The notes beneath the pieces are model-generated. The model did not search any database and was not told where the DNA came from. It saw nothing but the letters and a program-made list of their open reading frames with translations. From NCBI GenBank assembly GCA_015488325.1, contig WFOA01000010.1, forward strand, positions 15,945 through 79,944: a stretch of DNA of 64,000 bases, in the 5' to 3' direction. The DNA is from Acidimicrobiia bacterium. Lineage in GTDB: Bacteria > Actinomycetota > Acidimicrobiia > Spongiisociales > ZC4RG35. The position numbers were made by a program, and so were the translations under genes. Shown piece after piece: positions 1,414 through 29,794 of the stretch (positions within the stretch are counted from its first letter, which is position 1; each line of letters starts with the position of its first letter).

Positions 1414-2890
1414 GCACGGTCACCTTCCGAGGCACCATGCGGCCACCCGTGTCGTCGGCGGAGACCTCCTCCAGGTATTCGGCGTCCTGGTTGACCCGCC
1501 ACTGGTCCCATTCCTGACCCGCCAGGTTCCGGGCGGCCATGAGTCCGGTCATCATGGCATGGTCCTGGTTGTTGTATTTGTGCATGCCGTTGCGGCCGCA
1601 GAGCTGGAGGTTGTCGAACTCGGCGTCGAGGTAGCTGCGGATCACCGCCACGTTGGCGGCGTATTCCTCGTCGTAGACGGGGTACGCCTTGTGCACCCGG
1701 ATCACCGTGCCGTCGATCACCTTGTCCGAGTCGATGAGCCCGATGGAGGCGAGCTCGCGGGATCCCCGCTCCAGCAGCTCCTCGTCGGTGGCGTCCCACA
1801 GGTCGTCGCCTTCGTTGCAGAAGTACTCCAACCCGAGGGCGGTGTGCCGCTGATCGGGCACCATCTCCGGCGACCAGTTCTTGAAGTTCTGGACCCTGCC
1901 CACCCGGACGGACGGGTCGTGGATGTAGATCCAGTTGTCCGGGAACACGTCCGGGTCGTCGAGGACGAGGACGACGGTGAGGAAGTCCCGATAGCGAAGG
2001 GCCCGGGCGGCGTCGAGGACCTCCGACGGCGGTTTCGGGCGGAGACCTTCGACGAGGGCACGGATCGGCATCGACGACACCATGGCGTCGACGGCGACCC
2101 GGCGCGACTCCGTCGCCGTCTCCACTTCGAGGGCCACCACCCGCCCACCGTCGTGGTGGATCTCCGCGACGCGGGTTCCCAACTGGACCGACACGCCTCG
2201 GGCGGCGAGGTCTTCGGCGACCCGTTCCCACATCATCCCGGGGCCGAGGCGGGGGTATTCGAACTCTTCGATGAGGGTCTTGACGATCTCTCCCCGTTGA
2301 CCGAACAGCGCTTGTTTCACCGCTCGGAACAGGGAGAGCCCTTTGATGCGCTGCGCCGCCCAGTCGGCCGAGATCTCCGAACAGGGCATCCCCCACACCT
2401 TCTCGGTGTAGGTCTTGAAGAAGATCTCGTAGAGCCGGCGACCGAAATGGGCGACGACCCAGTCCTCGAAGGAGACGATGTTTCGTTTCGGACGAAGCGT
2501 CGACGCCAGGTAGGAGAATCCACATCGGGCGGCTTCGACGACCCCGAGCTTGCGGAGGGCGTCTTTGGCGTCGAGGGGGTAGCGGAAAAACCGGCCCCGG
2601 TAGTAGATCCGGGACATCCGCTGGCGGACCAGGAAGTCCTCGTCGGGCAGGAACCGATGCCACAGTTCACGGATCTCGTCGCTCTTGGTGAAGAAACGGT
2701 GTCCACCGATGTCGAAGCGGTACCCGCCGTAGCGTTCGGTTCGTGACAGCCCTCCGACGAGGCTCGGATGAGCCTCGAACACCGTCGGTCGCAGCCCCAG
2801 CCGGTCCAGCTCCCAGGCGGCGGTGAGCCCCGCCGGCCCGGCGCCGACCACCCCGATCGTCCCTGAAGATCCGTCGCCCATCGCTCCCAT
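1403..2890 (-). CDS. NAD(P)/FAD-dependent oxidoreductase (amine-oxidase / UDP-galactopyranose-mutase-like fold)
   Basis: 495-aa ORF. N-terminal dinucleotide-binding motif IGVVGAGPAGLTAAWEL, then RFDIGGHRFF and FEYPRLGPGMMWE, typical of this flavoenzyme family. High GC3 coding frame. Confidence 0.8.
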   Translation of the reverse strand: MGAMGDGSSGTIGVVGAGPAGLTAAWELDRLGLRPTVFEAHPSLVGGLSRTERYGGYRFDIGGHRFFTKSDEIRELWHRFLPDEDFLVRQRMSRIYYRGRFFRYPLDAKDALRKLGVVEAARCGFSYLASTLRPKRNIVSFEDWVVAHFGRRLYEIFFKTYTEKVWGMPCSEISADWAAQRIKGLSLFRAVKQALFGQRGEIVKTLIEEFEYPRLGPGMMWERVAEDLAARGVSVQLGTRVAEIHHDGGRVVALEVETATESRRVAVDAMVSSMPIRALVEGLRPKPPSEVLDAARALRYRDFLTVVLVLDDPDVFPDNWIYIHDPSVRVGRVQNFKNWSPEMVPDQRHTALGLEYFCNEGDDLWDATDEELLERGSRELASIGLIDSDKVIDGTVIRVHKAYPVYDEEYAANVAVIRSYLDAEFDNLQLCGRNGMHKYNNQDHAMMTGLMAARNLAGQEWDQWRVNQDAEYLEEVSADDTGGRMVPRKVTVRDD

Positions 2891-11433: not shown

Positions 11434-12897
11434 ATGGCGGGCGGTCGCTGGTCGGCGACCTCCAGCATCGGCCGTCAACTCGTCACCACCCTCGCCACCG
11501 TCGTCCTGGCTCGGCTCCTCGCCCCCGCCGACTACGGGATCGCGGTGGCCGTCACCGTCATCCTCGGCGTCTTCGAGCTGATGTCACAGTTCGGAATCGG
11601 CCAGTCCCTGGTCCGTCACCGTCGACTCGACCCCTCGACCACGTCGACGACGTTCTGGGCCTCGCTGATCATCGCCGGGGTGGTCTCGACCAGCGTCGTG
11701 GTGTTCGCCGACCCGCTGGGGAGCCTCATCGGCCAGGAGGCTCTGGGGCCGTTCCTCCGGCTGGCGGCGGTCGGGTTGGCGGTCTCGATGGCGGCTTCGG
11801 TGCCTGCAGGTCTGCTCACCCGGCAGATGGAATGGTCGAAGCTGACGATGATCCAGCTCGCCGGGTCGATCGTCCAGTTCTCGGTGGCGGTGGGGTTGGC
11901 GGCGACGACGGCGCTCGGGGCGTGGGTCCTCATCATCGGACGGGTGGCCGGGTCGGCCTTCCAGTTCGTCGGCCTCTTCTGGGCGGCACGGTGGACCCCG
12001 ACCTGGGAGTTCTCCCCGGCGGTGCTCCGCCGGGACCTCTCCTTCAACCTGGGGTTCTGGAGCACCTACGTCACCTCGTATGTGGCGAAGAACCTGGACT
12101 ACTGGGTGGTGGGCCGGCTGTTGGGGGCTGCCGTGCTGGGCGTCTATTACATCGCCTACGTGCTGCCGGTGCTCGTCCGCCAGCGCATCACCCGGGTCCT
12201 GGAGGGTGTCTTGTATCCGGTCATGGCACGGGTCGCCGACGACCGCCGCCGTCTCGAAGCCGTGTACGTCGAAGCCCTCGGGTTCTCCACCTTCGTCACC
12301 CTCCCGGCGGTGCTGGGCCTGGTCGCCGTCGCCGACCTCGTCGTCCCCCTGTTCTTCGGTACCCAATGGTCCGGGGCGGTGGCACCGATGCGGATCCTGG
12401 CGCTGGCGACCGCCTTCGACGCCCTCCTCCCCGTCGGCACCGCCCTGTTCCTGGCCCTCGGCCTCCCCGGCCGCAACGCCGTCATCACCACCTCCCGGGT
12501 GGTGACGATGGTCGTCGTCTTGGCCGTGGTGGCCGGGTCCCGGGACCTCACCTCGATCGCGTGGGCGGTCGCCGCCGGGTCGGTGACGGCCGTCGTCGTG
12601 GCGTTCCGCCTCGTCGTCCGCCGGGCCGGCGTGTCGCCCCGCTCCTTCGCATCCGCGGTGCTCGCCCCGAGCGTCACCTCGGCGGCGATGCTCGGTGTCG
12701 TCGTCGCGACCCGCCAGTTCACCTTCGTCGGCGGCCTGGGCGACCTCCCCCAACTCGTCGTCGCCGTCGTCGTAGGGATCGTCGCCTACACGGTGCTCGG
12801 GATGGGACTGTTCCGCCGCCGATACCGGAAGTATTTCGCCGACCTCGCAACCCTGGTCGGCTTCGACCGGATCCGTCAGAGGACCAGCACCCGATAG
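11434..12897 (+). CDS. Wzx-type polysaccharide/oligosaccharide flippase (MOP superfamily)
   Basis: About 12 hydrophobic segments. The N-terminus SSIGRQLVTTLATVVLARLLAPADYGIAVAV...QSLV is typical of polysaccharide biosynthesis (Wzx) proteins. The start is uncertain (ATG 11434; track start 11323). Confidence 0.8.
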   Translation: MAGGRWSATSSIGRQLVTTLATVVLARLLAPADYGIAVAVTVILGVFELMSQFGIGQSLVRHRRLDPSTTSTTFWASLIIAGVVSTSVVVFADPLGSLIGQEALGPFLRLAAVGLAVSMAASVPAGLLTRQMEWSKLTMIQLAGSIVQFSVAVGLAATTALGAWVLIIGRVAGSAFQFVGLFWAARWTPTWEFSPAVLRRDLSFNLGFWSTYVTSYVAKNLDYWVVGRLLGAAVLGVYYIAYVLPVLVRQRITRVLEGVLYPVMARVADDRRRLEAVYVEALGFSTFVTLPAVLGLVAVADLVVPLFFGTQWSGAVAPMRILALATAFDALLPVGTALFLALGLPGRNAVITTSRVVTMVVVLAVVAGSRDLTSIAWAVAAGSVTAVVVAFRLVVRRAGVSPRSFASAVLAPSVTSAAMLGVVVATRQFTFVGGLGDLPQLVVAVVVGIVAYTVLGMGLFRRRYRKYFADLATLVGFDRIRQRTSTR

Positions 12898-13739
12898 CGG
12901 AACGCCCCTTCCAGGCGCCCCAGACGGAAGCCGAGCATCCAGGCGAAGCGGAAACGACCCGACCGGGAAGCGAGGAGGGGCAGGCCGGCGAACAGGCGTG
13001 CCCACCCCTTCAGGCCGGAGGTGAGCCGCAGCGGCGGCATCCCCTGGGGCTCGTAGCGGAGGTGCAGAGCGACGTCCGCCACCGCGTAGGCCCGGGCCTG
13101 GCGGAGGACCCCTCGGGTGTCGTGGCGGAGGCGGTAGTGGACCACGGCGTCGGCGGCGAAATGGAGTTCGTGACCGGCGAGCTGCATCCGCCAGCAGAAG
13201 TCGGTGTCGGGGAGAGAGGGAAGCGACTCGTCGAACCCTCCGACCGCCTGGGCCGCCTTCCGGTTCACCCCGAGGTTGGCTCCGGCCGCGTGGGGGAGGA
13301 AGCCGTATTTGTTCTGGGGACGGTCCGGTTGAGGGTTCGTACGGGTGGCCAGCACCCAGGGAGGGTTGAGTTCGGTGAGGTCGAGGGGTCCGGTGACGAG
13401 GGAGTGGGTGTCGAGGGCCCGGCTCATGGCGCCGACCCACCCGCGGCCGACGACGTCGTCGGCGTCGCAGAAGGCGATCTTGTCCGACGCCGCCTCGGCA
13501 AGACCCACGTTCCGGGCATGGGGTTCCCCTGCCCGCCGGAAGGCGTCGACGATCCGCAAGGGCAGCCGGGAGGCGAAGGCCTGGGCGACGTCCCGGGTCC
13601 GGTCGGTACTGCGGTTGTCCACCACCACCACCTCGAAGGACCCGGGATCGACCTGGCGGGTCAGGGCTTCGAGCTGGTCCGCCAACGTCGCCTCGGCGTT
13701 GAAGGCGGGGATGACGACGCTGAGCTCGGGTACCTCCAT
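12876..13739 (-). CDS. Glycosyltransferase family 2 (paralog of 10395..11324)
   Basis: LSVVIPAFNAEATL...VVVVDNRSTDRT...AFCDADD. C-terminal LGRLEGAFRYRVLVL. Its 3' end overlaps the convergent Wzx gene by 22 nt. Confidence 0.85.
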   Translation of the reverse strand: MEVPELSVVIPAFNAEATLADQLEALTRQVDPGSFEVVVVDNRSTDRTRDVAQAFASRLPLRIVDAFRRAGEPHARNVGLAEAASDKIAFCDADDVVGRGWVGAMSRALDTHSLVTGPLDLTELNPPWVLATRTNPQPDRPQNKYGFLPHAAGANLGVNRKAAQAVGGFDESLPSLPDTDFCWRMQLAGHELHFAADAVVHYRLRHDTRGVLRQARAYAVADVALHLRYEPQGMPPLRLTSGLKGWARLFAGLPLLASRSGRFRFAWMLGFRLGRLEGAFRYRVLVL

Positions 13740-13754: not shown

Positions 13755-14906
13755 TCAGCCGCCCCTCGGGTCGGGGCCGGCAGAGACGACCCTTCGGGCG
13801 ATGTCTCGCCACAGGTCCACGGCGAGGCTCTCGGGAAGGGAGACGTCGGCGGTCTGGAGGACGGCTCCGCGGGGCACCGGCCGTTCGACGACGGCGTCGC
13901 GAATCAGCCCGATGGGGACGTGCTCGGGATGGTCGACGATGCGGACCGCCCGGCCCCGGAGATCGAAGGATCCGATCCCCCGGTCGAGACGGTCGCCGGG
14001 ATGCAGGTCCCGTTTCGCCACGGCCGCCAGGGACAGCTCGGGGCGAGCCGAGTTGTCGAGGAGCACCCCGCCCCCTTCCGTCACCCGTCGGATCGTCTTG
14101 AGGATCTCCAGATGCACGAAGATGTTGGGTCGGACGAGGGTGTAGTAGGGCCCGTCGCCCATCTTGTAGTACCGCAGGGCCGGGGCCTGGTCGGGGTCGT
14201 GGGTGGCGACGATGAACACGCCGTGGCTGAGATGGGGTGAGACGACGAAGTCGGTCACCGGCCGCCCCACCTTCTCCGCCAGCGACGCCAGGCGGGCGGC
14301 GCCGTCGGACAGGTCGTCGACCGCCGCCCCTTCCATGCCGTCGGGCCCGATGGTGGCACCGAAACGGTTCCCGACGAGGACCTGTTCGGCTTCGACCTTG
14401 GTGCCGTCGGTGAAGGCGGTCACCATCGGGAGGCTGATGCCCTGACGCTCGGCCCAATACTCCATCTCGTCGGGGGTGGGATCCCGGTTGAGGAACCCTT
14501 TCATGTTCCCGTAGGCGACGGGCCGAAAGCCCATCGCCACTGCCTCTTCGTGCAGCTCGGCGAGACAGCCCGGCTGGTCGCCGGCGGCTTCGGTCACGAC
14601 CCCTCGGCCGACGAAAGCCGAGCCGGTGGTGATGTGGAACTCGGTGTTCATGGTGACGACCGGGACGCCGCGGTCGACGGCCGCGGCCACCACGTCGGTC
14701 GCCCAGATGGGATCACCCGAGCATTCGACGACGACGTCGGCGTGGTCGACGAGCTCGTCGATCGAACGGGTGACCAGGTCGTCGTCGAAGACGTCCACCG
14801 TCCGACGTCGGGTGAGCACCTTGACGATACGGGCCGTGTCCCTCCGCCGGACTTCGGTGGCGAAGTTCCGGGCGATGAAGCCGGTTCCGACCAGACCCAG
14901 GTTCAT
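13755..14906 (-). CDS. NAD(P)-binding, homoserine-dehydrogenase-like oxidoreductase with C-terminal SAF domain (COG4091-like)
   Basis: Internal ATG at 14906 (ATGA overlap with the rmlA stop) gives [15 protein letters not shown] (Rossmann GxGxxA) ...VVECSG... The C-terminal region (DLHPGDRLD...[18 protein letters not shown]) is SAF-like. Family assignment is from memory. Confidence 0.65.
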
Positions 14907-15808
14907 CGGATCGGCCTCGACCGGGGTGCCCAGCCGCTGAAGGGCTGGTCCAACAGCTCGAGCAGGTACTGGCCGTACTGGGAGGAACGCATGGCACCGG
15001 CGAGCCGGCGGACCTGTTCGGCGTCGATGTAGCCCATCCGCCAGGCGATCTCCTCGGGGGCTGCGATCTGCAGACCCTGGCGGCGTTGGATCGTGGCGAT
15101 GAAGTTGGAGGCTTCGAGCAGGGCGTCGTGGGTTCCCGTGTCCATCCAGGTGGTTCCCCGGCCCAAGAGCTGCACCGACAGTCGGCCCTGTTCCAGATAC
15201 ACCCTGTTGAGGTCGGTGATCTCGAGTTCGCCCCGGGCCGACGGTTTCAGGCCTTTGGCGATGGAGGAGACGTCGCCGTCGTAGAAGTAGAGCCCGGTGA
15301 CGGCGAAGTTCGAACGGGGCCGTTCCGGTTTCTCCTCGATGGACAGCACCGTGCCCTTCTCGTCGAACTCGATCACCCCGTACCGCCGGGGGTCTCGCAC
15401 GTAGTAGGCGAACACGAGGGCCCCTTCGGTGAGGGCGGCGGCCTCCTGCACCCGGTCGGTGATGCCGTAGCCGAAGAAGATGTTGTCGCCGAGGATCAAA
15501 GCGACGGGGTCGCCGTCGACGAACCGTTCCCCGACGATGAAGGCGTCCGCCAGGCCCCGCGGTTCGGGCTGAAAGGCGTACGAGAAGCTGAGTCCCCACT
15601 GACTGCCGTCTCCGAGGACGTTGTGGAAGCTGGGGGCGTCGCCGGGGTTGGTGATGACGAGGATGTCGCGGATCCCGGCCAGCATCAGCACCGAGAGCGG
15701 GTAGTAGATCATCGGCTTGTCGAACACCGGTAGGAGCTGTTTGGAGACCCCCCGGGTGACGGGGGCCAGCCGGGTCCCCGAGCCGGCAGCGAGGATGATC
15801 CCTTTCAT
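14903..15808 (-). CDS. rmlA: Glucose-1-phosphate thymidylyltransferase
   Basis: [52 protein letters not shown]... is canonical RmlA. GGAGGG lies directly upstream of ATG 15808. Confidence 0.95.
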
Positions 15809-16842
15809 CCCTCCGGCTCCAGGTCGATGAGAGCTCCGTCGAGCTCCACTTCGGCGAGACGGCGGCGCCATTCGGTGAGCAGCCGGTACCACTCGAGGGT
15901 GATGGTGTCGGGGGTCCGGTCGGTGAGACCCGCCGAGAGGGCCTCCACCACCTCCTGGACCCCGTCGATGGCGGTGAGTTCCGCCTTGTACCCCCGGGAT
16001 TCGATCTTGTCGAAGCACACCCGGTAGGACCGGTGGTCGGGGTCTCCGTACCATTCGATCTCGACGTCGTCGCCCACCGTTTCGGCGACGAGCCGGCCGA
16101 GGGGCCCGATCTGGTACACGTTCGCCTCCGAGCCCACGTTGAAGATCTCCCCGCTCACGTCCGAATGGGGAGCTTCGATGGCCCAGATGAGGGCGCGGCT
16201 GGTGTCGGCGACGTGGACCATCGGGCGCCACTGGCTTCCGTCCCGCATCAGCGGGAGACGACGATGTTTCCACGCCCCGTACGTCATCCCGTTGATGGCC
16301 AGGTCGAAACGCATCCGCGGGGAGTAGCCGTACACCGTCGCCTGGCGGAGCACCACCACACCGAAGGTGTCGCAGGCCAGGGGCAGCACCCCCGCCTCGG
16401 CCCGCTCGTTGGCCTGGGCGTAGATGGTGAGGGGGTTGGTGGGATGGGTCTCGTCGGCCACCACGTCGGGGTCTTGGAACCCGTACACCGAACAGGAGCT
16501 CGGCAGCACGTATCGTTCCACCCCGGCTTCACGGGCCAGACGGGCGCATCGCACCCTCGCCTCGTAGTTGATCTGCCAGGTGGCTTCGGGGAAGAGGGCG
16601 CCGCTGGGGTCGTTGGAGATGGCGGCCAGGTCGATCACGTACCGGACCCCGGAGAAATGGTCGGGACGCAGGCGTCGGGTGTCTTCGGTGATCTTCTCCA
16701 CCCGGTCGTCGTCGGCGAGGCGGTCCCGCCCGAAGAAGAACCGGTCGATGACCCGTACCCGGTATCCCCGTTCGACCAGCATCGGGACCAGGGTGGTGCC
16801 GATGTATCCGCCGCCGCCGGTCACCATCACCAGATCACTCAT
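15805..16842 (-). CDS. NAD-dependent epimerase/dehydratase family (extended SDR) protein with atypical YxxxN in place of YxxxK
   Basis: [15 protein letters not shown] (GxxGxxG) and SSCSVYG. At the position of the catalytic YxxxK the sequence reads [13 protein letters not shown] overlaps at both ends, with rmlC and rmlA. Confidence 0.8.
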
Positions 16843-17411
16843 GGGGTCTCCTCGTCGTAGGTGAAGTACACGGGCAGGTCGGCGAAGCGGGGCTGTCTCC
16901 GGTCTTTCTCGGAGACGATGGCCTCGTCGGGGGCCACCGGCCAGTCGATCCCGAGGTCGGGGTCGTCCCAGGCCACCCCCCGGTCCACGTCGGGTGACCA
17001 GTGACTCGTGACCTTGTACAGGACTTCGGTGTTGGGTTGGAGGGTGCAGAACCCGTGGGCGAAGCCCACCGGCACGTAGACCTGGTTCCAGGCCTCCGCC
17101 GACAGTTCGACGGCGACGTGCCGCCCGAAGGTGGGTGAACCTCTGCGGAGGTCGACGAGGACGTCGAAGACGGCTCCGGCGGTGACCCGCACCAGCTTGG
17201 ACGTGGCCGCCGGGGGGACCTGGAAGTGGAGACCGCGTACCACTCCGACGTCCACCGAGAGGGAGTGGTTGTCTTGAACGAAGTCATCGTGGATGCCCAG
17301 CTCGGCGAGGGTTCGGCGGTTGTACACCTCGGAGAAGAAGCCCCGTTCGTCTCGGTGACGGTCCGGTACGAACAGCCACGCCCCCGGCAGCTCGAGCTCG
17401 ATCGCTTCCAC
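16839..17411 (-). CDS. rmlC: dTDP-4-dehydrorhamnose 3,5-epimerase
   Basis: VPDRHRDERGFFSEVY...VQDNHSLS..GVVRGLHFQ...KLVRVTAGAVFDVLVDLR..SPTFG...VPVGFAHGF is a cupin RmlC signature. GTG 17411 is preceded by GGAGGGGAGG. Confidence 0.9.
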   Translation of the reverse strand: MEAIELELPGAWLFVPDRHRDERGFFSEVYNRRTLAELGIHDDFVQDNHSLSVDVGVVRGLHFQVPPAATSKLVRVTAGAVFDVLVDLRRGSPTFGRHVAVELSAEAWNQVYVPVGFAHGFCTLQPNTEVLYKVTSHWSPDVDRGVAWDDPDLGIDWPVAPDEAIVSEKDRRQPRFADLPVYFTYDEETP

Positions 17412-17500: not shown

Positions 17501-18679
17501 TCACCGCCCCAGCACCTCGTGGTAGAGACGCTCCAACTCGGCGGCCACTCGGTCCGGGCGAAATCCCTGCTCCACCACCCGTTTGGCGGCGGCACCGAGG
17601 CGGGCCCGCAGCTCGGCGTCTTCCGCCAGCTCGACGATCGCCGCCGCCAGCGCCTCAGGGTCCTGGGGTGGGACCGTGAGACCGCTTTCGCGGTCGGTGA
17701 CGACGTCGCTCATCGGGGGAACACCGGTGACGACGACCGCGCATTCGGCGGCCATCGCCTGCAGCATCGCCACCCCGATCCCTTCGAACAGGGAAGGGAA
17801 GGCGAAGACGTCGGCGGCCGCCAACAGGTCGACGACGTCACGGCGGTGCCCGAGGAACCGCATTCGGTCGCCGAGACCGGACGCGGCGAGCCGTCTCCGG
17901 AGGTCGTCGCTGAGACTGCCCGGCGTGCCGGCGACCAGGGCCCGAGCGGTGGGGATCCGGTCCACCACGAGCCGCATCGCTTCGATCAGGTAGCGCTGAC
18001 CCTTCTGGGGGGCTTCCCGGCCGATGTTCACCACGAGGAAGGTGTCCTCTGCCCAACCCATCTCCCCGAGGATCCGCTTCCGGGCGGCCTCACGGCCGCC
18101 GACGGGGACGAGATCGGCCGGGTCGACCGCCCGGGGGATGACGGCGATCCGTTCGTCGGCGATACGAGCGGTGTCTCTCCACGACCGAGCCACCTCCCCG
18201 GAGATGGCATGGAAACGGGTGACCAGCCGCATGGTGGTGGTGTCCACCACCTGGTAGGCCCGCAGCTTCCACCAGGCCAACGGGTTGTCGAGGGATTTCA
18301 CCTTCTCGTTGGCGATGTTCACCAGGGTCTCCACCACAGGAACGCGGAGGCGACGCCCGGCGAACCGGGCCGCCAAGGCGGCGTCGGCGAGGGAGCAGTG
18401 GACGAGGTCCGGCTCCAGATCGCGAAGTACACGGATGAGGTCACGGGCCCGGGTCCAGGGCCCGGGACGGGCGACACCCTTCGGGTACAGGTGGACGACC
18501 GGCACGGTCGAAGGCACTTCGTCCCTTCGCGACGGATCGACTTCGTAGAGGCAGACGAGGCTGTGGCGCAGCTCGGGGTCGGTGAACGACCGGAGGTTGG
18601 TGACGAGTTGCTGTTCGGCCCCCCCGGTCGCCGCGATCGAGTTGATGACGTGGACGACATGCGCCCGTCTGCGCGTCAT
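17501..18679 (-). CDS. Glycosyltransferase family 4
   Basis: HVVHVINSIAATGGAEQQL at the N-terminus. C-terminal FAFPSLFEGIGVAMLQAMAAECAVVVT (E-x7-E). An in-frame GTG at 18850 (GTGA overlap with the deacetylase stop) would add 57 aa, and that segment has high GC3. The start is therefore ambiguous. Confidence 0.8.
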   Translation of the reverse strand: MTRRRAHVVHVINSIAATGGAEQQLVTNLRSFTDPELRHSLVCLYEVDPSRRDEVPSTVPVVHLYPKGVARPGPWTRARDLIRVLRDLEPDLVHCSLADAALAARFAGRRLRVPVVETLVNIANEKVKSLDNPLAWWKLRAYQVVDTTTMRLVTRFHAISGEVARSWRDTARIADERIAVIPRAVDPADLVPVGGREAARKRILGEMGWAEDTFLVVNIGREAPQKGQRYLIEAMRLVVDRIPTARALVAGTPGSLSDDLRRRLAASGLGDRMRFLGHRRDVVDLLAAADVFAFPSLFEGIGVAMLQAMAAECAVVVTGVPPMSDVVTDRESGLTVPPQDPEALAAAIVELAEDAELRARLGAAAKRVVEQGFRPDRVAAELERLYHEVLGR

Positions 18680-18846
18680 GGTTCGGTGCGCTCCCGGCTC
18701 GGTGTCCTCCTCCGCCTCGACGAACCCGGCGTCTGCGGGCACCGAACCGTTCGCGTCGCTCCCCCGTCCGGCATGGGTTCCCCTCTCGAACGTCCACCGC
18801 GCATTATCGGACGCCGACGGGTTCAGGACCAAGTTCCCCACCTCGG

Positions 18847-19629
18847 TCACGGGCCCCGGTACCCCGACACCAATGACCGCACCCGATCTTCCAGGCTGAG
18901 GCCGCCACGCACCCGGGGCCCGAAGAACACCCGGCCGTCGGCCGCCTGCACGGGGATGCGGGGGATGCGGTGGCGGTCGGTTCCGGGCCCGACCGGGCCG
19001 GGACGTCCCAGCACGGCCGTCTCGTATCGCCGCCGGACCACCCCGTCGGCCCCCTCCGACCAGTAGCCCCACGGGTAGGCGAAATGGCGGGGCCGGATCC
19101 CCAGGCGCCGCTCGATGAGCTCGTCGGAGGCGGCGAGCTCGGATTCGACCTGGTCGGGCGCCAAGGAGCGTAGGTCGACGTGTCGATGGGTGTGAGCGCC
19201 GATCGTGACGAGGCCCGACGCCACCATCTCCTCCACCTGTTCCCAGCGCAACGGGCGGCCGTCGGGGTAGAGGGGCGTTCCCGTCTCGACGGGTTCGGTG
19301 GTGAGGAACAGGGTGAAGGGCATCTGCAAGTCGCGCAGCAGCGGGAACGCGTGCTCGTAGACATCGACGTAGCCGTCGTCGAAGGTGATCGCGACCTCCA
19401 GGGTCTCGCCATGACCGCCATCGACGGCCTGTTCGAAGGGGAGCACCCGGGCGTGCTCCGCCAACCAGGCGACATGGGCGCGAAACACCTCGGGGGTGAC
19501 GTCCATCTGGCGGGCGGATCCGCCCCCCACCTGGTGGTAGATGAGGATGCGGGGCCCGGCGACAGGCGAGAGGAGTGGGTCGGCCACGACCGCGGCCATC
19601 TTGAGGAGTCGCCGGATGAGGTGCGCCAT
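18847..19629 (-). CDS. Polysaccharide deacetylase (CE4/NodB-like)
   Basis: ILIYHQV...ITFDDGYVDVYEHAFPLL...FTLFLTT...IGAHTHRHVDL is consistent with CE4 metal- and catalytic-site motifs. Confidence 0.85.
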   Translation of the reverse strand: MAHLIRRLLKMAAVVADPLLSPVAGPRILIYHQVGGGSARQMDVTPEVFRAHVAWLAEHARVLPFEQAVDGGHGETLEVAITFDDGYVDVYEHAFPLLRDLQMPFTLFLTTEPVETGTPLYPDGRPLRWEQVEEMVASGLVTIGAHTHRHVDLRSLAPDQVESELAASDELIERRLGIRPRHFAYPWGYWSEGADGVVRRRYETAVLGRPGPVGPGTDRHRIPRIPVQAADGRVFFGPRVRGGLSLEDRVRSLVSGYRGP

Positions 19630-19633
19630 GGCC

Positions 19634-22429
19634 TCAGCGATGGGACATCGGGGGGCCGAGGGCGAGGAGCTCCTCGTCGGTGAGGACCGGCTGCGCCAGG
19701 AGCCCGAGACGCTGGACCGGCGCCAGGTTGGGGCGGATCCCCTCGGACCAGTCGGGGTCCCAGCCGAGGGGCTGCTCGTTGGCGGACCGCCACGGGTAGT
19801 AGATGCGGGCTCCGTCGATCGTCCCCTCGTAGAGCCAGCCGAGACTGATCTCGAAGTACCGGACCTCTTCGATCTGCTCTTGGAGGGCGGCGGCCGTCTC
19901 GGCCTGGTTCCGTTTCGCCGCCGCCCGTTGCTTGCGGTCCAGACGCTCGATCACGGCCTTCACGTAGTCGCCCGCCAGGTGGTCGAGGGCGTCACGGTCG
20001 AACCGGGGGGCGTAGACGAACACGTTGACGGCGCCCCGCTGGCTGGCCAGATGCCAGATCACCGGCGCCCGTTCGGTCGTGGCCACGTGGATCCGGAAGA
20101 AGTTGGCGACGAGCCACTCGTCGATGGTGGGGGCCTGCCCCCCTCCGACGGCCCCGATGATCCGGGTGATGTGACGTTCCAACTCGGCGGCGGCTTTGGT
20201 GCCGAGCTCGGCCCGCAACCCGGCGAGCAGGTAGGACCCCACCGTCCGGTATCCCCGAGCCTCGTCGAGGGGAAGGAAGTCCGGGATCTGGGAGAAACCG
20301 TGTTCGGTGGCGGCGACCGGCGAGGACATGAGGAGGTTCTCGACCCGGGAGACGAGGAAGTTGGCGACGGCCGGGTAGGCACGCTCCGGCTCGGCCTCCG
20401 CCAGACGCTCGACCAGCTCCAAGGCGACGGATTCGTCGACCGCGGCCGTTCCCGTCGGCGGCGGGATCGGCCCCCCGGCCGGAGGCTCGACGGTCGGTTC
20501 GACGACCTGGCCGTCACCGGTCTCGGCGTCGGCGTCCGCCGGGACCGCCGTGGCCTCCACGGTGGGCTCCGGCTCGGGTGTCGGCTCCGCCACCTCCCCT
20601 GGCGGGGCCTCGGTGTCGGTCACCGCTTCGACCAGGGTCCCCAGGTCGGCCTGGGCGGGCTCGAACGTGGAGATCCGGCGGGGACGGGGCGCCGGTGCAC
20701 GGGCGGGTTCGGCGGCCGGTTCCCGGGGGGCGACCGCCGGAGCGACCGGCCGACCCCGTCCGAGACCGGCCGCGGGCATGACGCCCCGCCGGTCCACGAA
20801 CACCGCTCCGAGGAACTTGGCTCCCCGATCTTCGAGATCCGCCACCCGGTCGGCGAGCTCGGTGCGAGAGACCCGACCCGGGACGAGGGTGACGACGGCG
20901 TAGTCGACCCGTTGCACCAGCTCCTGAGCGGTCGCCACGGTGAGGTCGTTGGCGGCGAACAGCACCAGGTCGAACCGGGCCGAAGCCACCCGGATGAGGT
21001 CGGCGAGGAGGGGGCGGGCCAGCAGCTCGGAGGGGTCTTCGGTGGGTGAGCCGGCCTGCACGGAGATGAGGTTGGGTCGGACCGGCCGGGCCTGCGCCAG
21101 TATCCGGGCGAGGGCGGCGTCGTCGCCTTCGGGGATCTCGAGCAGCGTGGCGAAGTCGACGTCGCCCCGGTACTCCACCATGTTGGTGTCGTGGGTGAAG
21201 TCGGCGTCCACCAACAGGACCGAACGCCCTGCCCGGGCGAACGCCACCGCCAGGTCGGCGGCGAGGGCGTGGACGTCCTCGGGTTGCGTGCCGAGGCCCG
21301 TGACCGCCACCGCCGCCCCCAAGCCTCCGATCCGACCCTGCAGCCCGGCACGGAGCCCCTGGACGGCACGTTTTCTCCGCCCCCCTTCTTCCGCGTCGTA
21401 CCAGATGCTCCGCCGTGACGGTTTGCGGATCGGTACGGCCGCGAGGAGGGGAAGCGGAGCCAGGTCGGCCCCGGTCCAGACCGGCTTGAACAGGCGGTCG
21501 ACGACCAGCAAGCCCGCCACAGCGAGGACGAGGCCGACCAGCAGGCCGATGGCTCCGGCCGCTCCCCGTGAGACGGGGTCCGGTGTCTGGTCCACGACGT
21601 CGATGACCTCGGACACGACCGGGCCCGACAGCGCCGCCTGACGGAGGAACAGCTCCTGGAACGAAGCCTCCAACTCTTCGTATTCCCGTTCGAGGGCCCG
21701 GCGCAGGGTCTGCTCCGCGCTGAACTCGGAGACCGTCGGCGGCGGGCCGAGCCGGTCGAGCTGGGCGTTGACGGTGGCGATCGCCAGGGTCGTACGGTCG
21801 AGATCCGCCTGAACTTCGTCTTCGGCTCGGTCGCTGCCGACCAGCAGCTCCTTTTGGTATTCGAGGGCGTCGGCCCGCAGCGACTCGAGGAGCGCCTGCA
21901 GTTCGGCCCGCTCCTCCTCGTCGGGGTCGACGGCGACAGGCGAGCCGATGGCCTCGATCCGGGCCCGCACGTCCGCCATCCGGGCGGAGATCTGTTCGAG
22001 TTGGGTCTGGATCTGCTCCAGGACGTTGGGGGGCTGGCCTTCGAGATACCGGGACCGCAGCTCGCCGGCCCGGGCCTGCGCCTCCTCGGTGCTCGACCCT
22101 TCGGCGACGAAGACGAGGGCGCCTCGATCGACGTCGCTGAAGATCTCCCAGGAGGGGTTGGCCTCGAGCAGGTCGGCGTTCACTTCGAGGGCGAAGGCGA
22201 GGGCCTCTTCGAGACGGGCCTGGGCGAAGTCTCGGGACACACCCGACGGGTTGTCTTCGCTCTCGACGCTGGCGACGACGGTGACCGGGGCCTCCGCCCG
22301 GATCACCGGGGTCAGGGAGGCGTTCCTCCAGGCGGCGCCGAACACGCCGGCGGCGAAGCCGAGCACGGCGAACACCACCACCCAGGGCCAGCGGGCCCGG
22401 AGGACACGAAGGGTGCGGGTCAGGTCCAA
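19634..22429 (-). CDS. Atypical polysaccharide co-polymerase: Wzz-like two-TM ectodomain, P-loop-degenerate BY-kinase-like domain, Pro/Ala/Glu linker, and an unassigned ~265-aa C-terminal domain
   Basis: 931 aa. TM segments at residues 14-33 and 291-311 flank a coiled-coil-rich segment. AVAVTGLGTQPEDVHALAADLAVAFARAGRSVLLVDADF aligns to the BY-kinase Walker A/A' region but lacks GK[ST]. The C-terminal domain is described in findings. Confidence 0.75.
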   Translation of the reverse strand: MDLTRTLRVLRARWPWVVVFAVLGFAAGVFGAAWRNASLTPVIRAEAPVTVVASVESEDNPSGVSRDFAQARLEEALAFALEVNADLLEANPSWEIFSDVDRGALVFVAEGSSTEEAQARAGELRSRYLEGQPPNVLEQIQTQLEQISARMADVRARIEAIGSPVAVDPDEEERAELQALLESLRADALEYQKELLVGSDRAEDEVQADLDRTTLAIATVNAQLDRLGPPPTVSEFSAEQTLRRALEREYEELEASFQELFLRQAALSGPVVSEVIDVVDQTPDPVSRGAAGAIGLLVGLVLAVAGLLVVDRLFKPVWTGADLAPLPLLAAVPIRKPSRRSIWYDAEEGGRRKRAVQGLRAGLQGRIGGLGAAVAVTGLGTQPEDVHALAADLAVAFARAGRSVLLVDADFTHDTNMVEYRGDVDFATLLEIPEGDDAALARILAQARPVRPNLISVQAGSPTEDPSELLARPLLADLIRVASARFDLVLFAANDLTVATAQELVQRVDYAVVTLVPGRVSRTELADRVADLEDRGAKFLGAVFVDRRGVMPAAGLGRGRPVAPAVAPREPAAEPARAPAPRPRRISTFEPAQADLGTLVEAVTDTEAPPGEVAEPTPEPEPTVEATAVPADADAETGDGQVVEPTVEPPAGGPIPPPTGTAAVDESVALELVERLAEAEPERAYPAVANFLVSRVENLLMSSPVAATEHGFSQIPDFLPLDEARGYRTVGSYLLAGLRAELGTKAAAELERHITRIIGAVGGGQAPTIDEWLVANFFRIHVATTERAPVIWHLASQRGAVNVFVYAPRFDRDALDHLAGDYVKAVIERLDRKQRAAAKRNQAETAAALQEQIEEVRYFEISLGWLYEGTIDGARIYYPWRSANEQPLGWDPDWSEGIRPNLAPVQRLGLLAQPVLTDEELLALGPPMSHR

Positions 22430-24360
22430 ACCGTCGAAACCTCGGGTTCTGGGGTGAGGACGATCGTCTCGTCGCCGCCCCCAGTATGCCGCGCCAGCGC
22501 CCGCAACATGTCGACGACGTCCTCCAACGCCCCTTTGCGGGCGGCCCGCTCCAGCATCTCGACCCCGTCGGAGAGGGTGGTGACCCCCGGCCGAGGCGGA
22601 TGGGCGATCGAGATCTTCGGGTGCTCCGACGGCTCGAGGGCACCTTCGGCGAGGACCTCCACCATCTTCTCGCCCGGCCGGACCCCGCTGACGACGACTT
22701 CGATGTCGCGGCCGGGGACGAGTCCGGCGAGGCGGATCAGACGCCGAGCCAGGTCGGCGATCCGGATCGGCTCGCCCATGTCCAGCACGAACACCTCGCC
22801 GCCTTCGGCGAGGGCGGCGGCCTGGAGGACGAGCTGGACCGCCTCGTCGACCGTCATGAAGTACCGGGTCATGCTGGGGTCGGTGAGCGTGACCGGCCCG
22901 CCCTTCTTGATCTGCTCGACGAAGGTGGGCACGACACTGCCGCGGCTGCCGAGGACGTTCCCGAACCGCACGGCGGTGTAGGTGCAGCCGTCGGCACGCA
23001 GGTCGGCGGCCTGGACGAGCATCTCGGCGACCCGCTTGGTGGCGCCCATCACCGAGACGGGATCCACCGCCTTGTCGGTGGAGATCAACACGAACCGCTC
23101 CGCCCCGACCTGGGTGGCGATGTCGATCATGTTCCGGGTGCCGATCACGTTGGTCAGCACCGCCTCGTCCGGGAACCCTTCGAGGATCGGTACGTGTTTC
23201 AGCGCCGCCGCATGAAAGATGACCTGAGGCCGGTACGGGGTGACACGTCGCGCCAACATGTCGGCGTCCCGCACGTCGGCGAGGATCGGCGTGATCTCGG
23301 CGTCGGGTCCGCAGCCCAGCACCGTCTCGTGGAGGTGGGTCTCGTCGTTGTCGAGCGCCAGCACCGTCTCCGGACCGAACCGGAGGACCTGACGGACGAT
23401 CTCGGAACCGATCGAGCCTCCGGCCCCGGTGACGAGGACCCTTCTGCCCCGCAAGAGGCCCGCCACCGCGGCCAGGTCCGTCGAGACGGTGGCTCGAGGC
23501 AGCAGGTCGGTGAGTTCGATGTCTCGGACATCGACCGCGCCGGCGGAACCTTCCATCACCCGATGGGCGACGGGGAGGATCCGCAGCCGCACGTCGACGT
23601 CGGTGCAGAGGTCGACGACCCTCCTGCTGAGGTAGTCGTCGTCGGCCACGACGATCACCTGCTCGGCTCCGTACCGCTCGATCACGTCGTGCAGTTCGTC
23701 GAGGTCCCCCAAGATGGGCAGTCCGGCCAGACGGCGGACACTGTCGGCGCCTCCGGTCGAGACGAACCCGATGATGTCGATCTCACCGCCGTTGCTCGTC
23801 ACCTCACGGACGAAATCCGCCGCCGCCCGGCAGGTGCCGACGACGAGGGTGGGGAGCGGCCGCCCACCGGTGATGGTCCGTTTGAACGAGAACAGCCGCG
23901 ACCGGAACCGCACCAGGCCCATCCCGGCGAGGGCGAGCAGCGGGCCCATGATCGCCACCGACAGCGGGATCGGCACCAGGCCGTCGGAGGTGACGTCCAC
24001 CCAGAGCACCCAGCCGGTGACGGCCATGCCGACGACGACGTTGGAGGCGATCACCTGTTTCGCCTCGGAGATCGAGGCGAACTCCCAGACGTGCCCGTAG
24101 GCGCCGAAGACGACGTTGGCCGCGAGGTGCAGCAACAACAGCAGGGGCATCGTCCGGGTGAGGCCCGTCCACCAGGTGAGGGGGTCGGTGATCCCGGTGT
24201 CGAGCATCCGCAGCCCCAGGGCGATCGTATAGGCGCCGACGACGATGGCCAGGTCGACCACGGCGAAGGCGATGTCCGCCCGCACCCTGGAAGCGGCCGC
24301 GGCCAGCGGCCTCCACCATCGTCCAGCCCTTGTCCCCAAAACAGATCCGGTGTCTGCCAC
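22420..24360 (-). CDS. Membrane-anchored nucleotide-sugar 4,6-dehydratase/epimerase (CapD/WbpM/PglF-like polysaccharide biosynthesis protein)
   Basis: N-terminal TM helices, then VLVTGAGGSIGSEI...ISTDKAV.P.SVMGATKR.AE...RFGNVLGSRGSV, a CapD family signature. GTG 24360 is preferred (GGGAGG 5 nt upstream, and low GC3 upstream of it); the track start is 24417. Confidence 0.85.
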   Translation of the reverse strand: MADTGSVLGTRAGRWWRPLAAAASRVRADIAFAVVDLAIVVGAYTIALGLRMLDTGITDPLTWWTGLTRTMPLLLLLHLAANVVFGAYGHVWEFASISEAKQVIASNVVVGMAVTGWVLWVDVTSDGLVPIPLSVAIMGPLLALAGMGLVRFRSRLFSFKRTITGGRPLPTLVVGTCRAAADFVREVTSNGGEIDIIGFVSTGGADSVRRLAGLPILGDLDELHDVIERYGAEQVIVVADDDYLSRRVVDLCTDVDVRLRILPVAHRVMEGSAGAVDVRDIELTDLLPRATVSTDLAAVAGLLRGRRVLVTGAGGSIGSEIVRQVLRFGPETVLALDNDETHLHETVLGCGPDAEITPILADVRDADMLARRVTPYRPQVIFHAAALKHVPILEGFPDEAVLTNVIGTRNMIDIATQVGAERFVLISTDKAVDPVSVMGATKRVAEMLVQAADLRADGCTYTAVRFGNVLGSRGSVVPTFVEQIKKGGPVTLTDPSMTRYFMTVDEAVQLVLQAAALAEGGEVFVLDMGEPIRIADLARRLIRLAGLVPGRDIEVVVSGVRPGEKMVEVLAEGALEPSEHPKISIAHPPRPGVTTLSDGVEMLERAARKGALEDVVDMLRALARHTGGGDETIVLTPEPEVSTVWT

Positions 24361-27526: not shown

Positions 27527-28869
27527 GACAGCAGATCGTCCTCGGGATCGGCGCCGGGTTGACGGCACTGGTCGCGTTCGTCCTCGCCGCCGGCGCCGTC
27601 CCCCTCCACCTCGTGGTGCTGGCGGTGGCCGGCCTCTCCGTCACCTACCTGGTGGGTCGGGCGATGGCGACGGACTTCGACCGGTCCTGGCTCCCCGGTC
27701 TCCTGGTGGCCGGACTGGCCGCGAAGCTGGTCGGGGCCTGGGTCCGGTACTTCGTCCTCATCGAGGTGTACGGCGGTGTGGGTGACGCCCTCGGATACCA
27801 CAGCCGAGGCCTCCGCCTCGCCGAGATGTTCCGGGCGTTCACGGTCCCCACCTTCGAGGACGCCGGTTTCGGGTCGACCGGCACCCGGTTCGTCTCCTGG
27901 TTCACGGGTCTCGTCTACACGCCGTACCAGCCCGAGCCCCTCGGCGGTTTCTGGCTGTTCTCGCTGATCGCGTTCGCCGGCACGGTTCTCTTCTACGCGG
28001 CGGTGCGACGCAGCCTGCCACCGTCGACGTGGCGGCGGTTCCTCATCATGCTGATGTTCTGGCCGACGCTGCTGTACTGGCCGTCGTCGGTGGGCAAGGA
28101 AGCCCTGATCCTGGGCTTCGGAGGGGTGGTGACCTACGGGGCGGCGCGGCTGTTCGAGCGGTACCGCCTGAGCTGGCTGCTCGTCATCGGCGCGGCGATG
28201 GCCGTCATAGGCATCATCCGGGTCCACGTCGCCGGCCTGTTCGCCGGAGCGATCGTCGTCGGCATGCTCGTCTCCGCCGCACCTCGCGGTGCAGGCCCGA
28301 AGAGTCGCCGCCTCCTCCTCATGGCGGCCGGGTTCGCGGCGCTCATCCCCCTGGCCGCCCTGGTCTCGAGGGAGTTCGGCATCGACCCCAGCGGCCCCCT
28401 CGACCCCTCCGCCCTCGAGCCGGTCCTGTCCGAGGTGGCCCGCACCACCGGCCAGGGAGGCTCGGCGGTGCAGGGCGGGGTGATCCGCTCCATCGCCGAC
28501 GTCCCGGCCGGTGTCCTCAAGGTGTTGTTCCGTCCCCTCCCCTACGAGGCGTCCAACATCCAGATGCTGGCGGCCAGCGTCGAGGGCGTGGCGTTGCTCC
28601 TGTTGATCCTCTCCCGCACCCCGTGGATGATCGGGAACCTGCGTCGGCTGCGCCGCTTCCCGTATCTGATCTTCGCCGCCACGTTCTCGGCCGGTTTCGT
28701 GGTGGCCTGGAGCGCGATCCTCAACCTGGGGATCATCGCCCGCCAGCGGGCCCTCGTCATCCCCTTCGTCCTGACCCTCGTCGCCGGCCTCGGCTGGCCC
28801 CTGGCCGCCGGCGAGGAGCCGGCTTCCGCTGCCGAACCCGACCGGGACGCCGCCCTCAACCCCACTTGA
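27523..28869 (+). CDS. Polytopic membrane protein, candidate Wzy-type polymerase / O-antigen-ligase-like
   Basis: 448 aa with about 10-12 hydrophobic segments and no soluble domain. GTGA overlap with the GNAT stop. The functional call is by context only. Confidence 0.55.
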   Translation: MRQQIVLGIGAGLTALVAFVLAAGAVPLHLVVLAVAGLSVTYLVGRAMATDFDRSWLPGLLVAGLAAKLVGAWVRYFVLIEVYGGVGDALGYHSRGLRLAEMFRAFTVPTFEDAGFGSTGTRFVSWFTGLVYTPYQPEPLGGFWLFSLIAFAGTVLFYAAVRRSLPPSTWRRFLIMLMFWPTLLYWPSSVGKEALILGFGGVVTYGAARLFERYRLSWLLVIGAAMAVIGIIRVHVAGLFAGAIVVGMLVSAAPRGAGPKSRRLLLMAAGFAALIPLAALVSREFGIDPSGPLDPSALEPVLSEVARTTGQGGSAVQGGVIRSIADVPAGVLKVLFRPLPYEASNIQMLAASVEGVALLLLILSRTPWMIGNLRRLRRFPYLIFAATFSAGFVVAWSAILNLGIIARQRALVIPFVLTLVAGLGWPLAAGEEPASAAEPDRDAALNPT

Positions 28870-29794
28870 GCGCGGCCCCCACGGCGCCGACCACCGCCAG
28901 CACCCCGGTGACCGCCGCCGCGCCCACCCCGGCCCACCACCAGGCGGCGACGACCGCGCCACATAGGAGCGCCTGCGCCCCGGCGGCCACGAACACGACC
29001 GTCGGCACGCTCCACCCCCGGTCGGCCAGCCGGTCGTAGAGATGGGACCGGTCCCCTTGGAACAGGGGCATCCCCGCCCTCCGCCGTCGCAGCACCGTCG
29101 AGACGAGGTCGACGAGGAACACGCCGAGCAACGAGCCGCCGGCGACCATCCCGACCACGTCTTCGCCTCCCAGCCGGACACCGGAGGCCACGAGCATCAG
29201 GCCGACCAGGTAGCTGCCGTTGTCCCCGAGGAACACCCGCGCCGGATGCCAGTTGAAGACACCGAACCCGACCAAGGCGGCACCGAGGGCGACTTCGGCA
29301 CCGAGATCCGCTCCCGACGTCGACCCGACCAGCCCCATCGCCACCAGCGTCACCAGGGCCACCGACGCGACCAACCCGTCGAGGCCGTCGAAGAGGTTCA
29401 CGGCGTTGATCCCCACCACCACGCCGGCGGCGACGAGGGCACCGCCGACGGGTCCGACCCCGAGAGCCCAGGCCACGAGCACCCCGGCGACGGCTTCGAC
29501 GGCGAGCCTGAGCACCGGGGGCAGGCCTCTGCGGTCGTCGACCAGCCCCAACGCGACCACCAGCCCTGCCGCGACCATCAGCCTCGGGGAGGGACGTCCG
29601 GTGAGTATCGACGAGACGACGAGGGCGCCGTACAGCCCCACCCCTCCGAGGGGCACCGCCGGGACCGTGTGGACTTTCAGGGCCTCCCCGGGTCGGTCGA
29701 CGATCCCCAGTCGGGGGCCGAGCGCCGGTGCGATCGCCGACCACCCGGCGGAGACGACTGCGGCGGCGAGCCCTCCGGCGATCAGGCCGACCAC
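28856..29794 (-). CDS. Polyprenyl-phosphate N-acetylhexosamine-1-phosphate transferase (WecA/MraY family)
   Basis: GLVDDRRGL, INAVNLFDGLDGL and VFLGDNGSYL are hallmark MraY/WecA motifs. The start is set at in-frame GTG 29794; upstream track-ORF residues are R/G/P-rich junk. Confidence 0.85.
   Translation of the reverse strand: MVGLIAGGLAAAVVSAGWSAIAPALGPRLGIVDRPGEALKVHTVPAVPLGGVGLYGALVVSSILTGRPSPRLMVAAGLVVALGLVDDRRGLPPVLRLAVEAVAGVLVAWALGVGPVGGALVAAGVVVGINAVNLFDGLDGLVASVALVTLVAMGLVGSTSGADLGAEVALGAALVGFGVFNWHPARVFLGDNGSYLVGLMLVASGVRLGGEDVVGMVAGGSLLGVFLVDLVSTVLRRRRAGMPLFQGDRSHLYDRLADRGWSVPTVVFVAAGAQALLCGAVVAAWWWAGVGAAAVTGVLAVVGAVGAALKWG

Follow-up and report, generated by a model that had tools for sequence, protein, structure and literature searches.

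A cassette of four genes for the synthesis of a nucleotide-activated sugar lies in a 64,000-nucleotide stretch of the genome of an Acidimicrobiia bacterium (GenBank assembly GCA_015488325.1, contig WFOA01000010.1, positions 15,945 to 79,944), and this whole stretch, with a GC content of about 70%, is referred to here as the window. Along the minus strand the genes are ordered rmlC, a gene for an extended short-chain dehydrogenase/reductase (SDR), rmlA and a gene for an oxidoreductase related to Brucella DRL (Table 1). We favor, with modest confidence, the reading that the cassette encodes a self-contained dTDP-hexose pathway that follows the logic of rhamnose synthesis and in which both oxidoreductase steps would be performed by non-orthologous enzymes. 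Current automatic annotation labels these gene families as UDP-glucose 4-epimerase or as hypothetical proteins.

The four-gene cassette

The genes were called with a GC3-based gene caller and by direct reading of the minus strand, and public calls on contigs with identical proteins agree. Three ATGA stop/start overlaps of 4 bases, read from the sequence at 16839-16842, 15805-15808 and 14903-14906, join the four genes, and rmlC has a GTG start with GGAGG 5' of it. RmlC scores 214.5 bits on TIGR01221 (equivalog cut-off, 155.75) and 229.6 bits on PF00908, and RmlA scores 483.6 bits on TIGR01207 (equivalog cut-off, 360.65). RmlB and RmlD were searched for with Pfam and NCBIfam models on the genes from 1 to 38949, with local phmmer using three SDR queries in all six frames, and with tblastn using Escherichia coli RfbB and RfbD; the part from 38946 to 63998 was covered by tblastn for RmlB, RmlD and L-2-hydroxyglutarate oxidase (LhgO). 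Neither RmlB nor RmlD is encoded within the 64-kb window by these searches. The original prediction for this DNA, made from its letters, had described four genes chained by ATGA overlaps, with canonical RmlA and RmlC and without a recognizable RmlB or RmlD; each of these points holds, and the absence extends from the operon to the 64 kb. Like the classical RmlA-RmlB-RmlC-RmlD pathway, the cassette has orthologous RmlA and RmlC in a compact and translationally coupled operon, but the slots of RmlB and RmlD are held by the SDR and by a protein of another fold.

The only other extended SDRs in the window are a PglF/CapD-like protein and a 294-residue SDR. The latter reaches 111.8 bits with the RmlB model and 78.2 with that for RmlD, and it was rejected as the missing RmlD since the RmlD cut-off is 224 bits and its neighbors are the PglF-like dehydratase and a WecA-like transferase. 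Together with the WecA/MraY-family gene, these two SDR genes look like a separate branch initiating with a UDP-6-deoxy-HexNAc in the same polysaccharide locus.

The two oxidoreductases

The SDR matches PF01370 only and reaches no NCBIfam equivalog, with 41.7 bits on the RmlB model TIGR01181 (cut-off, 365.1), which places it outside RmlB, and 39.1 bits on the RmlD model TIGR01214. Its best match in the PDB by phmmer is Cj1427 of Campylobacter jejuni (E 3e-34, residues 1-303), and the alignment puts Y141-A-Q-A-N145 in the same columns as YGIDK of Cj1427, so that the catalytic Lys is Asn145; the catalytic Ser and Tyr are present. This Asn is invariant in 121 of 121 homologues, the 120 best being 65 to 99% identical and from many phyla, and the 97 of 98 further homologues from fetched loci in which the motif was found have Asn in 95 cases and Thr and Ser in one each. 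No Lys was seen at the catalytic position among about 219 homologues, and the invariance indicates that Asn145 is a conserved family hallmark and not a degenerate lesion. Position 143, two residues after the Tyr, is Lys or Arg in 118 of the 121 homologues and Gln in the clade of the window SDR; it is unlikely that this residue stands in for the catalytic Lys, since the window protein has Gln143 and the family lacks an invariant Lys at any position.

RmlB carries the motif S-T-D-E-V-Y-G, with an Asp-Glu pair directly after the catalytic Thr, and a Thr-Tyr-Lys triad. The corresponding segment of the SDR is S-S-C-S-V-Y-G, with C117 and S118 invariant in the 121 homologues, and with Cys-Ser where RmlB has Asp-Glu the acid/base pair for 4,6-dehydration is missing. 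The idea that this Cys corresponds to the one acting as acid/base in GDP-fucose synthase or GDP-mannose 3,5-epimerase was set aside, the register being off by one residue. Identity within the family is 65 to 70% across phyla, and about 110 positions are invariant, including the catalytic Ser, Tyr and Asn and the Gly-rich NAD motif. With an AlphaFold model of the SDR (pLDDT 90), the top six Foldseek matches were all Cj1427 (30 to 32% identity, TM-scores of about 0.77 and 0.87), followed by C4 epimerases, and RmlB came only at ranks of about 25 to 39 with 19 to 20% identity. The SDR is thus probably not a dehydratase, and if so, the product of the cassette is probably not a 6-deoxyhexose.

The fourth protein matches an NAD-binding domain of the homoserine-dehydrogenase type (PF03447, 35.9 bits) and DRL_cat (PF21135, 117.7 bits), and its match to SAF, at 20.6 bits, falls below the cut-off of 21. 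It has no SDR domain that would make it an RmlD, and its fold is homoserine-dehydrogenase/DXR-like. Its sole solved sequence relatives are the structures of Brucella DRL (3UPL/3UPY, E 6e-34), with which it shares the three-domain DRL fold, and the nearest structures are of the DXR-I and DXR-II folds. The original prediction had noted YAQAN in the SDR where YxxxK is expected and a lack of RmlB hallmarks, and both observations are confirmed here and found to be family-wide in the case of the Asn; it had also read the fourth protein as a homoserine-dehydrogenase-like NAD-binding protein with a SAF domain and not an RmlD, of which the NAD-binding domain and the distinction from RmlD stand, while the SAF domain is subthreshold and the protein is better described as a DRL_cat member.

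In Brucella DRL, Lys191, Lys193 and Thr229 anchor DXP (1-deoxy-D-xylulose 5-phosphate) or fosmidomycin, and His250 is conserved (PMC3847144). The fourth protein has Asn134, Lys136, Val171 and Glu at these positions, and the Val matches the description of DLO1, one of the uncharacterized DLO1/DLO2 relatives, Val at position 229 being the signature of DLO1 (PMC3847144). Since the equivalents of K191, T229 and H250 are replaced by Asn, Val and Glu, we rejected the possibility that it is a true DXR-II, and it also differs from Brucella abortus DRL in having a context of dTDP-sugar synthesis and not of isoprenoid synthesis by the methylerythritol phosphate (MEP) route. Conserved residues of Brucella DRL and of the Coxiella homologue discussed below line up with Asp110, Lys136, Asp167, Lys170, Glu174 and Glu267. 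The catalytic core of the DRL-like protein therefore seems to be kept, with a different substrate pocket.

Partner genes and related clusters

A scan of genomes with an alignment of the fourth protein gave at least 529 loci, found in Acidimicrobiia, Alphaproteobacteria, Campylobacterota, Bacillota, Rhodothermales and others. The best 80 were mapped with the window proteins and E. coli RfbB, RfbD, RfbA and RfbC, and partners were counted within 6 kb; individual loci are labeled L followed by a number. The DRL-like gene was found with the same SDR, usually also with RmlA and RmlC and never with RmlB, in 20 of these 80 loci. In 19 others its partners were canonical RmlB together with RmlC and, in 18 cases, RmlA, and no RmlD lay within 6 kb. 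Six loci had RmlD, usually with RmlC, and 27 had no Rml gene within 6 kb. A scan of metagenomes with an SDR alignment gave at least 580 loci, and among the best 80, which were likewise mapped, an RmlD-like gene directly followed the SDR gene in 41, a DRL-like gene was present in 7, and RmlB was present in none. Two of the RmlD-like partners were tested on TIGR01214 and scored 258 and 284 bits. Over both scans, RmlB was absent from all 100 SDR-containing loci, for up to 10 kb on each side (less at contig ends).

Across the 160 loci, the parts combine as either RmlB or the SDR with either RmlD or the DRL-like protein, together with RmlA and RmlC. The exchange can be seen within one gene order, DRL-RmlC-SDR-RmlA in L032 versus DRL-RmlC-RmlB-RmlA in L018, and Campylobacterota loci with RmlA-DRL-RmlC-RmlB and no RmlD were also found. 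This pattern assigns formation of the 4-keto sugar to the SDR and the terminal step to the DRL-like protein. A Campylobacterota metagenome-assembled genome (L075, 1-3732) has a full rmlB-A-C-D set with the DRL-like gene directly after it, and this coexistence indicates that the product of the DRL-like protein should differ from that of RmlD. The original prediction had offered, as its second alternative, that the two atypical oxidoreductases substitute for RmlB and RmlD and yield a non-rhamnose dTDP-6-deoxyhexose. The locus patterns favor the substitution and a non-rhamnose product, but the 6-deoxy part of that proposal is probably wrong.

Among solved structures the SDR is closest to Cj1427, a ping-pong C4 dehydrogenase that oxidizes a GDP-heptose without dehydration and whose tightly bound NADH is recycled by the conversion of alpha-ketoglutarate to L-2-hydroxyglutarate; an RmlC-like C3/C5 epimerase and then a C4 reductase act after it (PMC10680097). 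The C. jejuni pathway (Cj1427, the epimerase Cj1430 and the reductase Cj1428) thus has the same three-step logic as proposed here, with a C4 oxidase upstream of an RmlC-like epimerase and a terminal C4 enzyme, and RmlC is adjacent to the SDR in nearly all loci with sufficient flank. The C. jejuni pathway differs in that its substrate is a GDP-heptose and not dTDP-glucose, that Cj1427 keeps the YxxxK Lys, and that its terminal reductase Cj1428 is an SDR. The use of alpha-ketoglutarate by Cj1427 matches a linkage between the SDR and LhgO, which was called at the NF008726 equivalog cut-off of 299 bits. LhgO lies inside or beside SDR clusters in Coxiella burnetii (317 bits), L004 (484), L039 (342), L048 (334), L058 (343), L072 (342), L078 (343) and L136 (306), and L052 has LhgO (349 bits) with no SDR visible, giving nine related clusters in all. 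Among the genome loci it was found in 6 of 20 with the SDR and in 0 of 19 with RmlB (Fisher P = 0.02, uncorrected for relatedness). An enzyme that returns L-2-hydroxyglutarate to alpha-ketoglutarate fits a dehydrogenase of the Cj1427 type and has no place with a dehydratase, which regenerates its own NAD+. The NADH of the SDR may likewise be recycled by alpha-ketoglutarate, for which the linkage is indirect support.

The Coxiella cluster was reached via the sequence of CBU1838 (from an alignment to PDB 7PVI), after which the locus was fetched. Its order is LhgO, the RmlC CBU1838, the SDR CBU1837 (346 residues), the DRL_cat protein CBU1836 (418 residues), a PRK07208-type flavoprotein (CBU1835), RmlA (CBU1834, on the opposite strand) and two GT-C transferases. 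As in the window, RmlA, RmlC, a Ser-Tyr-Asn SDR and a DRL_cat protein are clustered: CBU1837 is 55% identical to the window SDR, has the motifs YAKAN and SSCS and overlaps the stop codon of RmlC, and CBU1834 and CBU1838 are 56% and 47% identical to their counterparts. The flavoprotein next to CBU1836 also has a relative in the window, encoded at 1403-2851 and 27% identical over its full length (E 2e-46). CBU1836, classed as DLO1 (PMC3847144), belongs to another DRL_cat subfamily and is only 26% identical to the DRL-like protein of the window, although GNxKGFL(N/D)R, DGTKV and HLE are motifs that both have and Brucella DRL lacks. Further differences are the adjacent LhgO and a Met in the RmlC pocket, neither of which is found in the window. 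It has been argued that a non-aromatic residue at this position, Met123 of CBU1838, accommodates a 6-OH (PMC9095892). The RmlC of the window has Phe there, in GFAHGF, and an aliphatic residue is found in 22 of 71 SDR-linked RmlCs versus 0 of 27 others (counts that ignore relatedness).

Cross et al. 2022 (PMC9095892) demonstrated 3,5-epimerase activity for CBU1838, the only member of the Coxiella cluster with a biochemical test. The same study argued against any rhamnose synthesis in Coxiella, proposed that dihydrohydroxystreptose, which keeps the 6-OH, arises from TDP-glucose by a C4 oxidase, an epimerase and a ring-contracting synthase, and it stated that the oxidase and the final synthase were unidentified (PMC9095892). 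It does not mention CBU1836 or CBU1837, we found no later paper that discusses either, and a 2026 review adds nothing new on the two enzymes (PMC13552124). Our literature search likewise found no functional study of COG4091, of SAF-dTDP proteins, of CBU1835 to CBU1837, of dTDP-L-mannose or of a dihydrohydroxystreptose synthase. From their sequences and gene context, the families of CBU1837 and CBU1836 are candidates for the two missing enzymes.

A second comparison is the dTDP-dihydrostreptose pathway of Streptomyces griseus (StrD, StrE, StrM and StrL), which also starts from dTDP-glucose and runs via an RmlC-type epimerase (PMC9095892). It differs in ending with StrL, an SDR of the RmlD type, and in making a 6-deoxy sugar. 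To our knowledge, streptose-type branched sugars are known only from Coxiella and the streptomycin producers. Formally, the final step to dihydrostreptose combines a rearrangement with the reduction of an aldehyde, which by our reasoning is the same chemistry as that of DXR, in which an alpha-ketol rearrangement is followed by aldehyde reduction.

Proposed pathway, alternatives and genomic setting

In the proposed pathway, RmlA, assigned by family membership, would form dTDP-D-glucose, and the SDR would oxidize C4 in the manner of Cj1427, retaining the 6-hydroxyl and having its NADH re-oxidized by alpha-ketoglutarate. RmlC, likewise assigned by its family, would then epimerize C3 and C5, and the DRL-like protein would carry out a terminal NAD(P)H-dependent step on the dTDP-4-keto-L-hexose, giving a product unlike that of RmlD. 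The product would be an L-series hexose with a 6-OH, of L-mannose or L-talose configuration if the last step is a simple reduction, or the ring-contracted, branched dihydrohydroxystreptose if it is a DXR-like rearrangement.

A simple reduction is favored by the wider fold family, which consists mostly of plain dehydrogenases, and by L060 and L011, in which DRL-like genes adjoin those for sugar C-methyltransferases, a place that would suit a 4-ketoreductase. Such methyltransferase genes (Methyltransf_14/13) lie beside DRL-like or SDR genes in L011 (8383-12719), L060 (11197-12435) and L110 (4452-5660), and in L011 two DRL-like paralogues flank the methyltransferase gene, between RmlC and RmlB. 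The other possibility is that the DRL_cat proteins in dTDP-sugar clusters are reductoisomerases that perform an alpha-ketol or retro-aldol ring contraction of the dTDP-4-keto-L-hexose and then reduce the aldehyde. We put this forward tentatively, as an idea that is possible and on present evidence doubtful; it is favored by the formal identity, in our reasoning, between the chemistry of DXR and dihydrostreptose synthesis, by the lack of another obvious synthase candidate in the Coxiella cluster, by the retention of the DRL-like gene alongside RmlD and by the DXR-I and DXR-II folds of the nearest structures. Genes similar to GH140 apiosidases (PF13204, 308 to 371 bits, with Collagen_bind_2) adjoin a DRL-like/LhgO/RmlC/SDR cassette in two Cohnella species (L039, 4990-6324 and 7925-9493; L058, 5242-6582 and 7841-9244), and one lies beside a DRL-like gene in Guptibacillus (L043, 11742-13889). 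The GH140 family acts on apiose, likewise a 3-C-hydroxymethyl furanose, and this hints at a branched furanose. We know of no DRL_cat protein for which ring contraction has been shown.

Several points weigh against a self-contained pathway that keeps the 6-hydroxyl, a reading that as a whole is drawn from homology and from gene context. That RmlB and RmlD are absent was established for the 64-kb window, tblastn found no LhgO gene in the same 64 kb, and the window SDR has Gln143 where most homologues carry Lys or Arg. Functional equivalence with CBU1836 is not established by 26% identity, which is no closer than that to Brucella DRL. The locus counts are not phylogenetically independent, and the statistics ignore relatedness. 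Moreover, the RmlC of the window and most other SDR-linked RmlCs have the canonical Phe at the position linked to the 6-OH, and the RmlD-like proteins found with the SDR, to judge from the two tested, exceed the RmlD equivalog cut-off, which would fit plain rhamnose if the SDR were an unorthodox dTDP-glucose 4,6-dehydratase. The DRL-like protein would in that case be a non-orthologous C4 reductase, and the product would be dTDP-L-rhamnose or its C4 epimer dTDP-6-deoxy-L-talose. The SDR does sit in the RmlB slot and never occurs together with RmlB, its commonest partner scores 258 to 284 bits on TIGR01214, the Phe is typical of enzymes with 6-deoxy substrates, and rhamnose is a common sugar, in contrast to L-mannose, L-talose and dihydrohydroxystreptose, each rare or unknown. 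We nevertheless consider a dehydratase rather unlikely, given the Cys-Ser in place of Asp-Glu, the loss of the catalytic Lys and the rank of the RmlB fold behind Cj1427 and the C4 epimerases. A redox-neutral dehydratase would also leave the LhgO linkage without a role, and the Coxiella orthologue resides in an organism reported to be rhamnose-free, with a sugar that has a 6-OH (PMC9095892).

It is less probable still that, in line with the first alternative of the original prediction, canonical rmlB and rmlD genes elsewhere in the genome supply dTDP-L-rhamnose, with the SDR and the DRL-like protein acting in tailoring, for example by re-oxidizing and converting dTDP-L-rhamnose, or on some other substrate. 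The extent of our search and the DRL-like gene appended to a full rmlBACD set in L075 are compatible with such an arrangement, and Rml genes are scattered in some actinobacteria, e.g., Mycobacterium tuberculosis. However, the compact set of RmlA, RmlC, SDR and terminal enzyme recurs across phyla, often with overlapping genes and in no SDR locus with RmlB, and the translational coupling of all four genes in the window argues for one pathway. The loss of the YxxxK Lys normally cripples SDR catalysis, and NmrA-type atypical SDRs are regulators, which would speak for the SDR being a catalytically dead pseudoenzyme, acting as a scaffold or regulator. We find this hardly credible. Conservation is very high and extends to the catalytic Ser and Tyr, the NAD motif and the Asn, and the place in the pathway is conserved as well, as expected if the enzyme is active and its triad altered.

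The cassette lies within a longer run of polysaccharide genes on the same strand, namely, a PglF-like dehydratase, a Wzz/tyrosine-kinase-like protein, a deacetylase, a GT4 glycosyltransferase, the cassette and a GT2 glycosyltransferase, with a flippase and more glycosyltransferase genes close by, and the four-gene operon is therefore part of a larger transcription unit. The GT2 gene is likely cotranscribed with the cassette, and its product is a candidate user of the sugar. The PRK07208-family flavoprotein is tentatively listed as an accessory gene and might be a mutase-like or oxidase enzyme; a comparable Amino_oxidase/GLF-like gene comes after the DRL-like gene in L065, and the distance of 11 kb from the cassette makes the link a weak one. 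A gene for a possible S-layer-type surface protein also lies beside the glycan locus. The C-terminal ~110 residues of the Wzz/tyrosine-autokinase-like protein match the C terminus of the PglX methyltransferase of bacteriophage exclusion (BREX) systems weakly, at 38.6 bits and far under the cut-off.

Table 1. Genes of the cassette and other features of the window
Feature	Position	Strand	Family matches and remarks
rmlC, dTDP-4-keto-hexose 3,5-epimerase, 190 aa	16839-17411	-	TIGR01221, PF00908
Atypical extended SDR (wSDR), 345 aa, Ser-Tyr-Asn triad; putative dTDP-glucose C4 dehydrogenase keeping the 6-OH	15805-16842	-	PF01370 only
rmlA, glucose-1-phosphate thymidylyltransferase, 301 aa	14903-15808	-	TIGR01207
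NAD(P)-dependent oxidoreductase, DRL-like (DXR-II-like, DLO-type), 383 aa; putative last enzyme of the pathway, acting on the dTDP-4-keto-L-hexose	13755-14906	-	PF03447 and PF21135
GT2 glycosyltransferase	12876-13739	-	PF00535, 83.8 bits; begins 15 bp downstream of the cassette
GT4 glycosyltransferase	17501-18850	-	PF13692 and PF00534; ends 89 bp upstream of rmlC
PRK07208-family flavoprotein, tentative accessory gene	1403-2851	-	NF005548, 721.6 bits; Amino_oxidase/NAD_binding_8
Possible surface protein, 737 aa	2987-5200	-	Three CWB2 cell-wall-binding repeats, PD40/Kelch beta-propeller motifs
Wzz/tyrosine-autokinase-like protein, 931 aa	19634-22429	-	
PglF/CapD-like UDP-GlcNAc 4,6-dehydratase	22420-24285	-	
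Generic SDR, 294 aa	24614-25498	+	
WecA/MraY-family phosphotransferase	28856-29794	-	
Fusion of GT4 and C-terminal GNAT acetyltransferase	29782-31536	-	
Fusion of NTP_transf_5 and GT4	31547-33601	-	

If the pathway proposed here is correct, SDRs with a Ser-Tyr-Asn triad would form a large family of their own, and the DLO relatives of DXR-II, uncharacterized since 2013, would gain a first function. Soil, marine and vent bacteria would then widely possess a rhamnose pathway in a 6-hydroxy version. The predicted requirement for alpha-ketoglutarate may explain the failure of simple assays. Dihydrohydroxystreptose is part of the Coxiella burnetii O-antigen, which in Q fever is the main vaccine antigen and determinant of virulence. 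If the DRL-like proteins do contract the ring, the SDR upstream would lead to dTDP-dihydrohydroxystreptose and RmlB upstream to dTDP-dihydrostreptose, CBU1837 and CBU1836 would be the two missing Coxiella enzymes, and the makers of streptose-type branched sugars would include this Acidimicrobiia organism along with hundreds of other bacteria.

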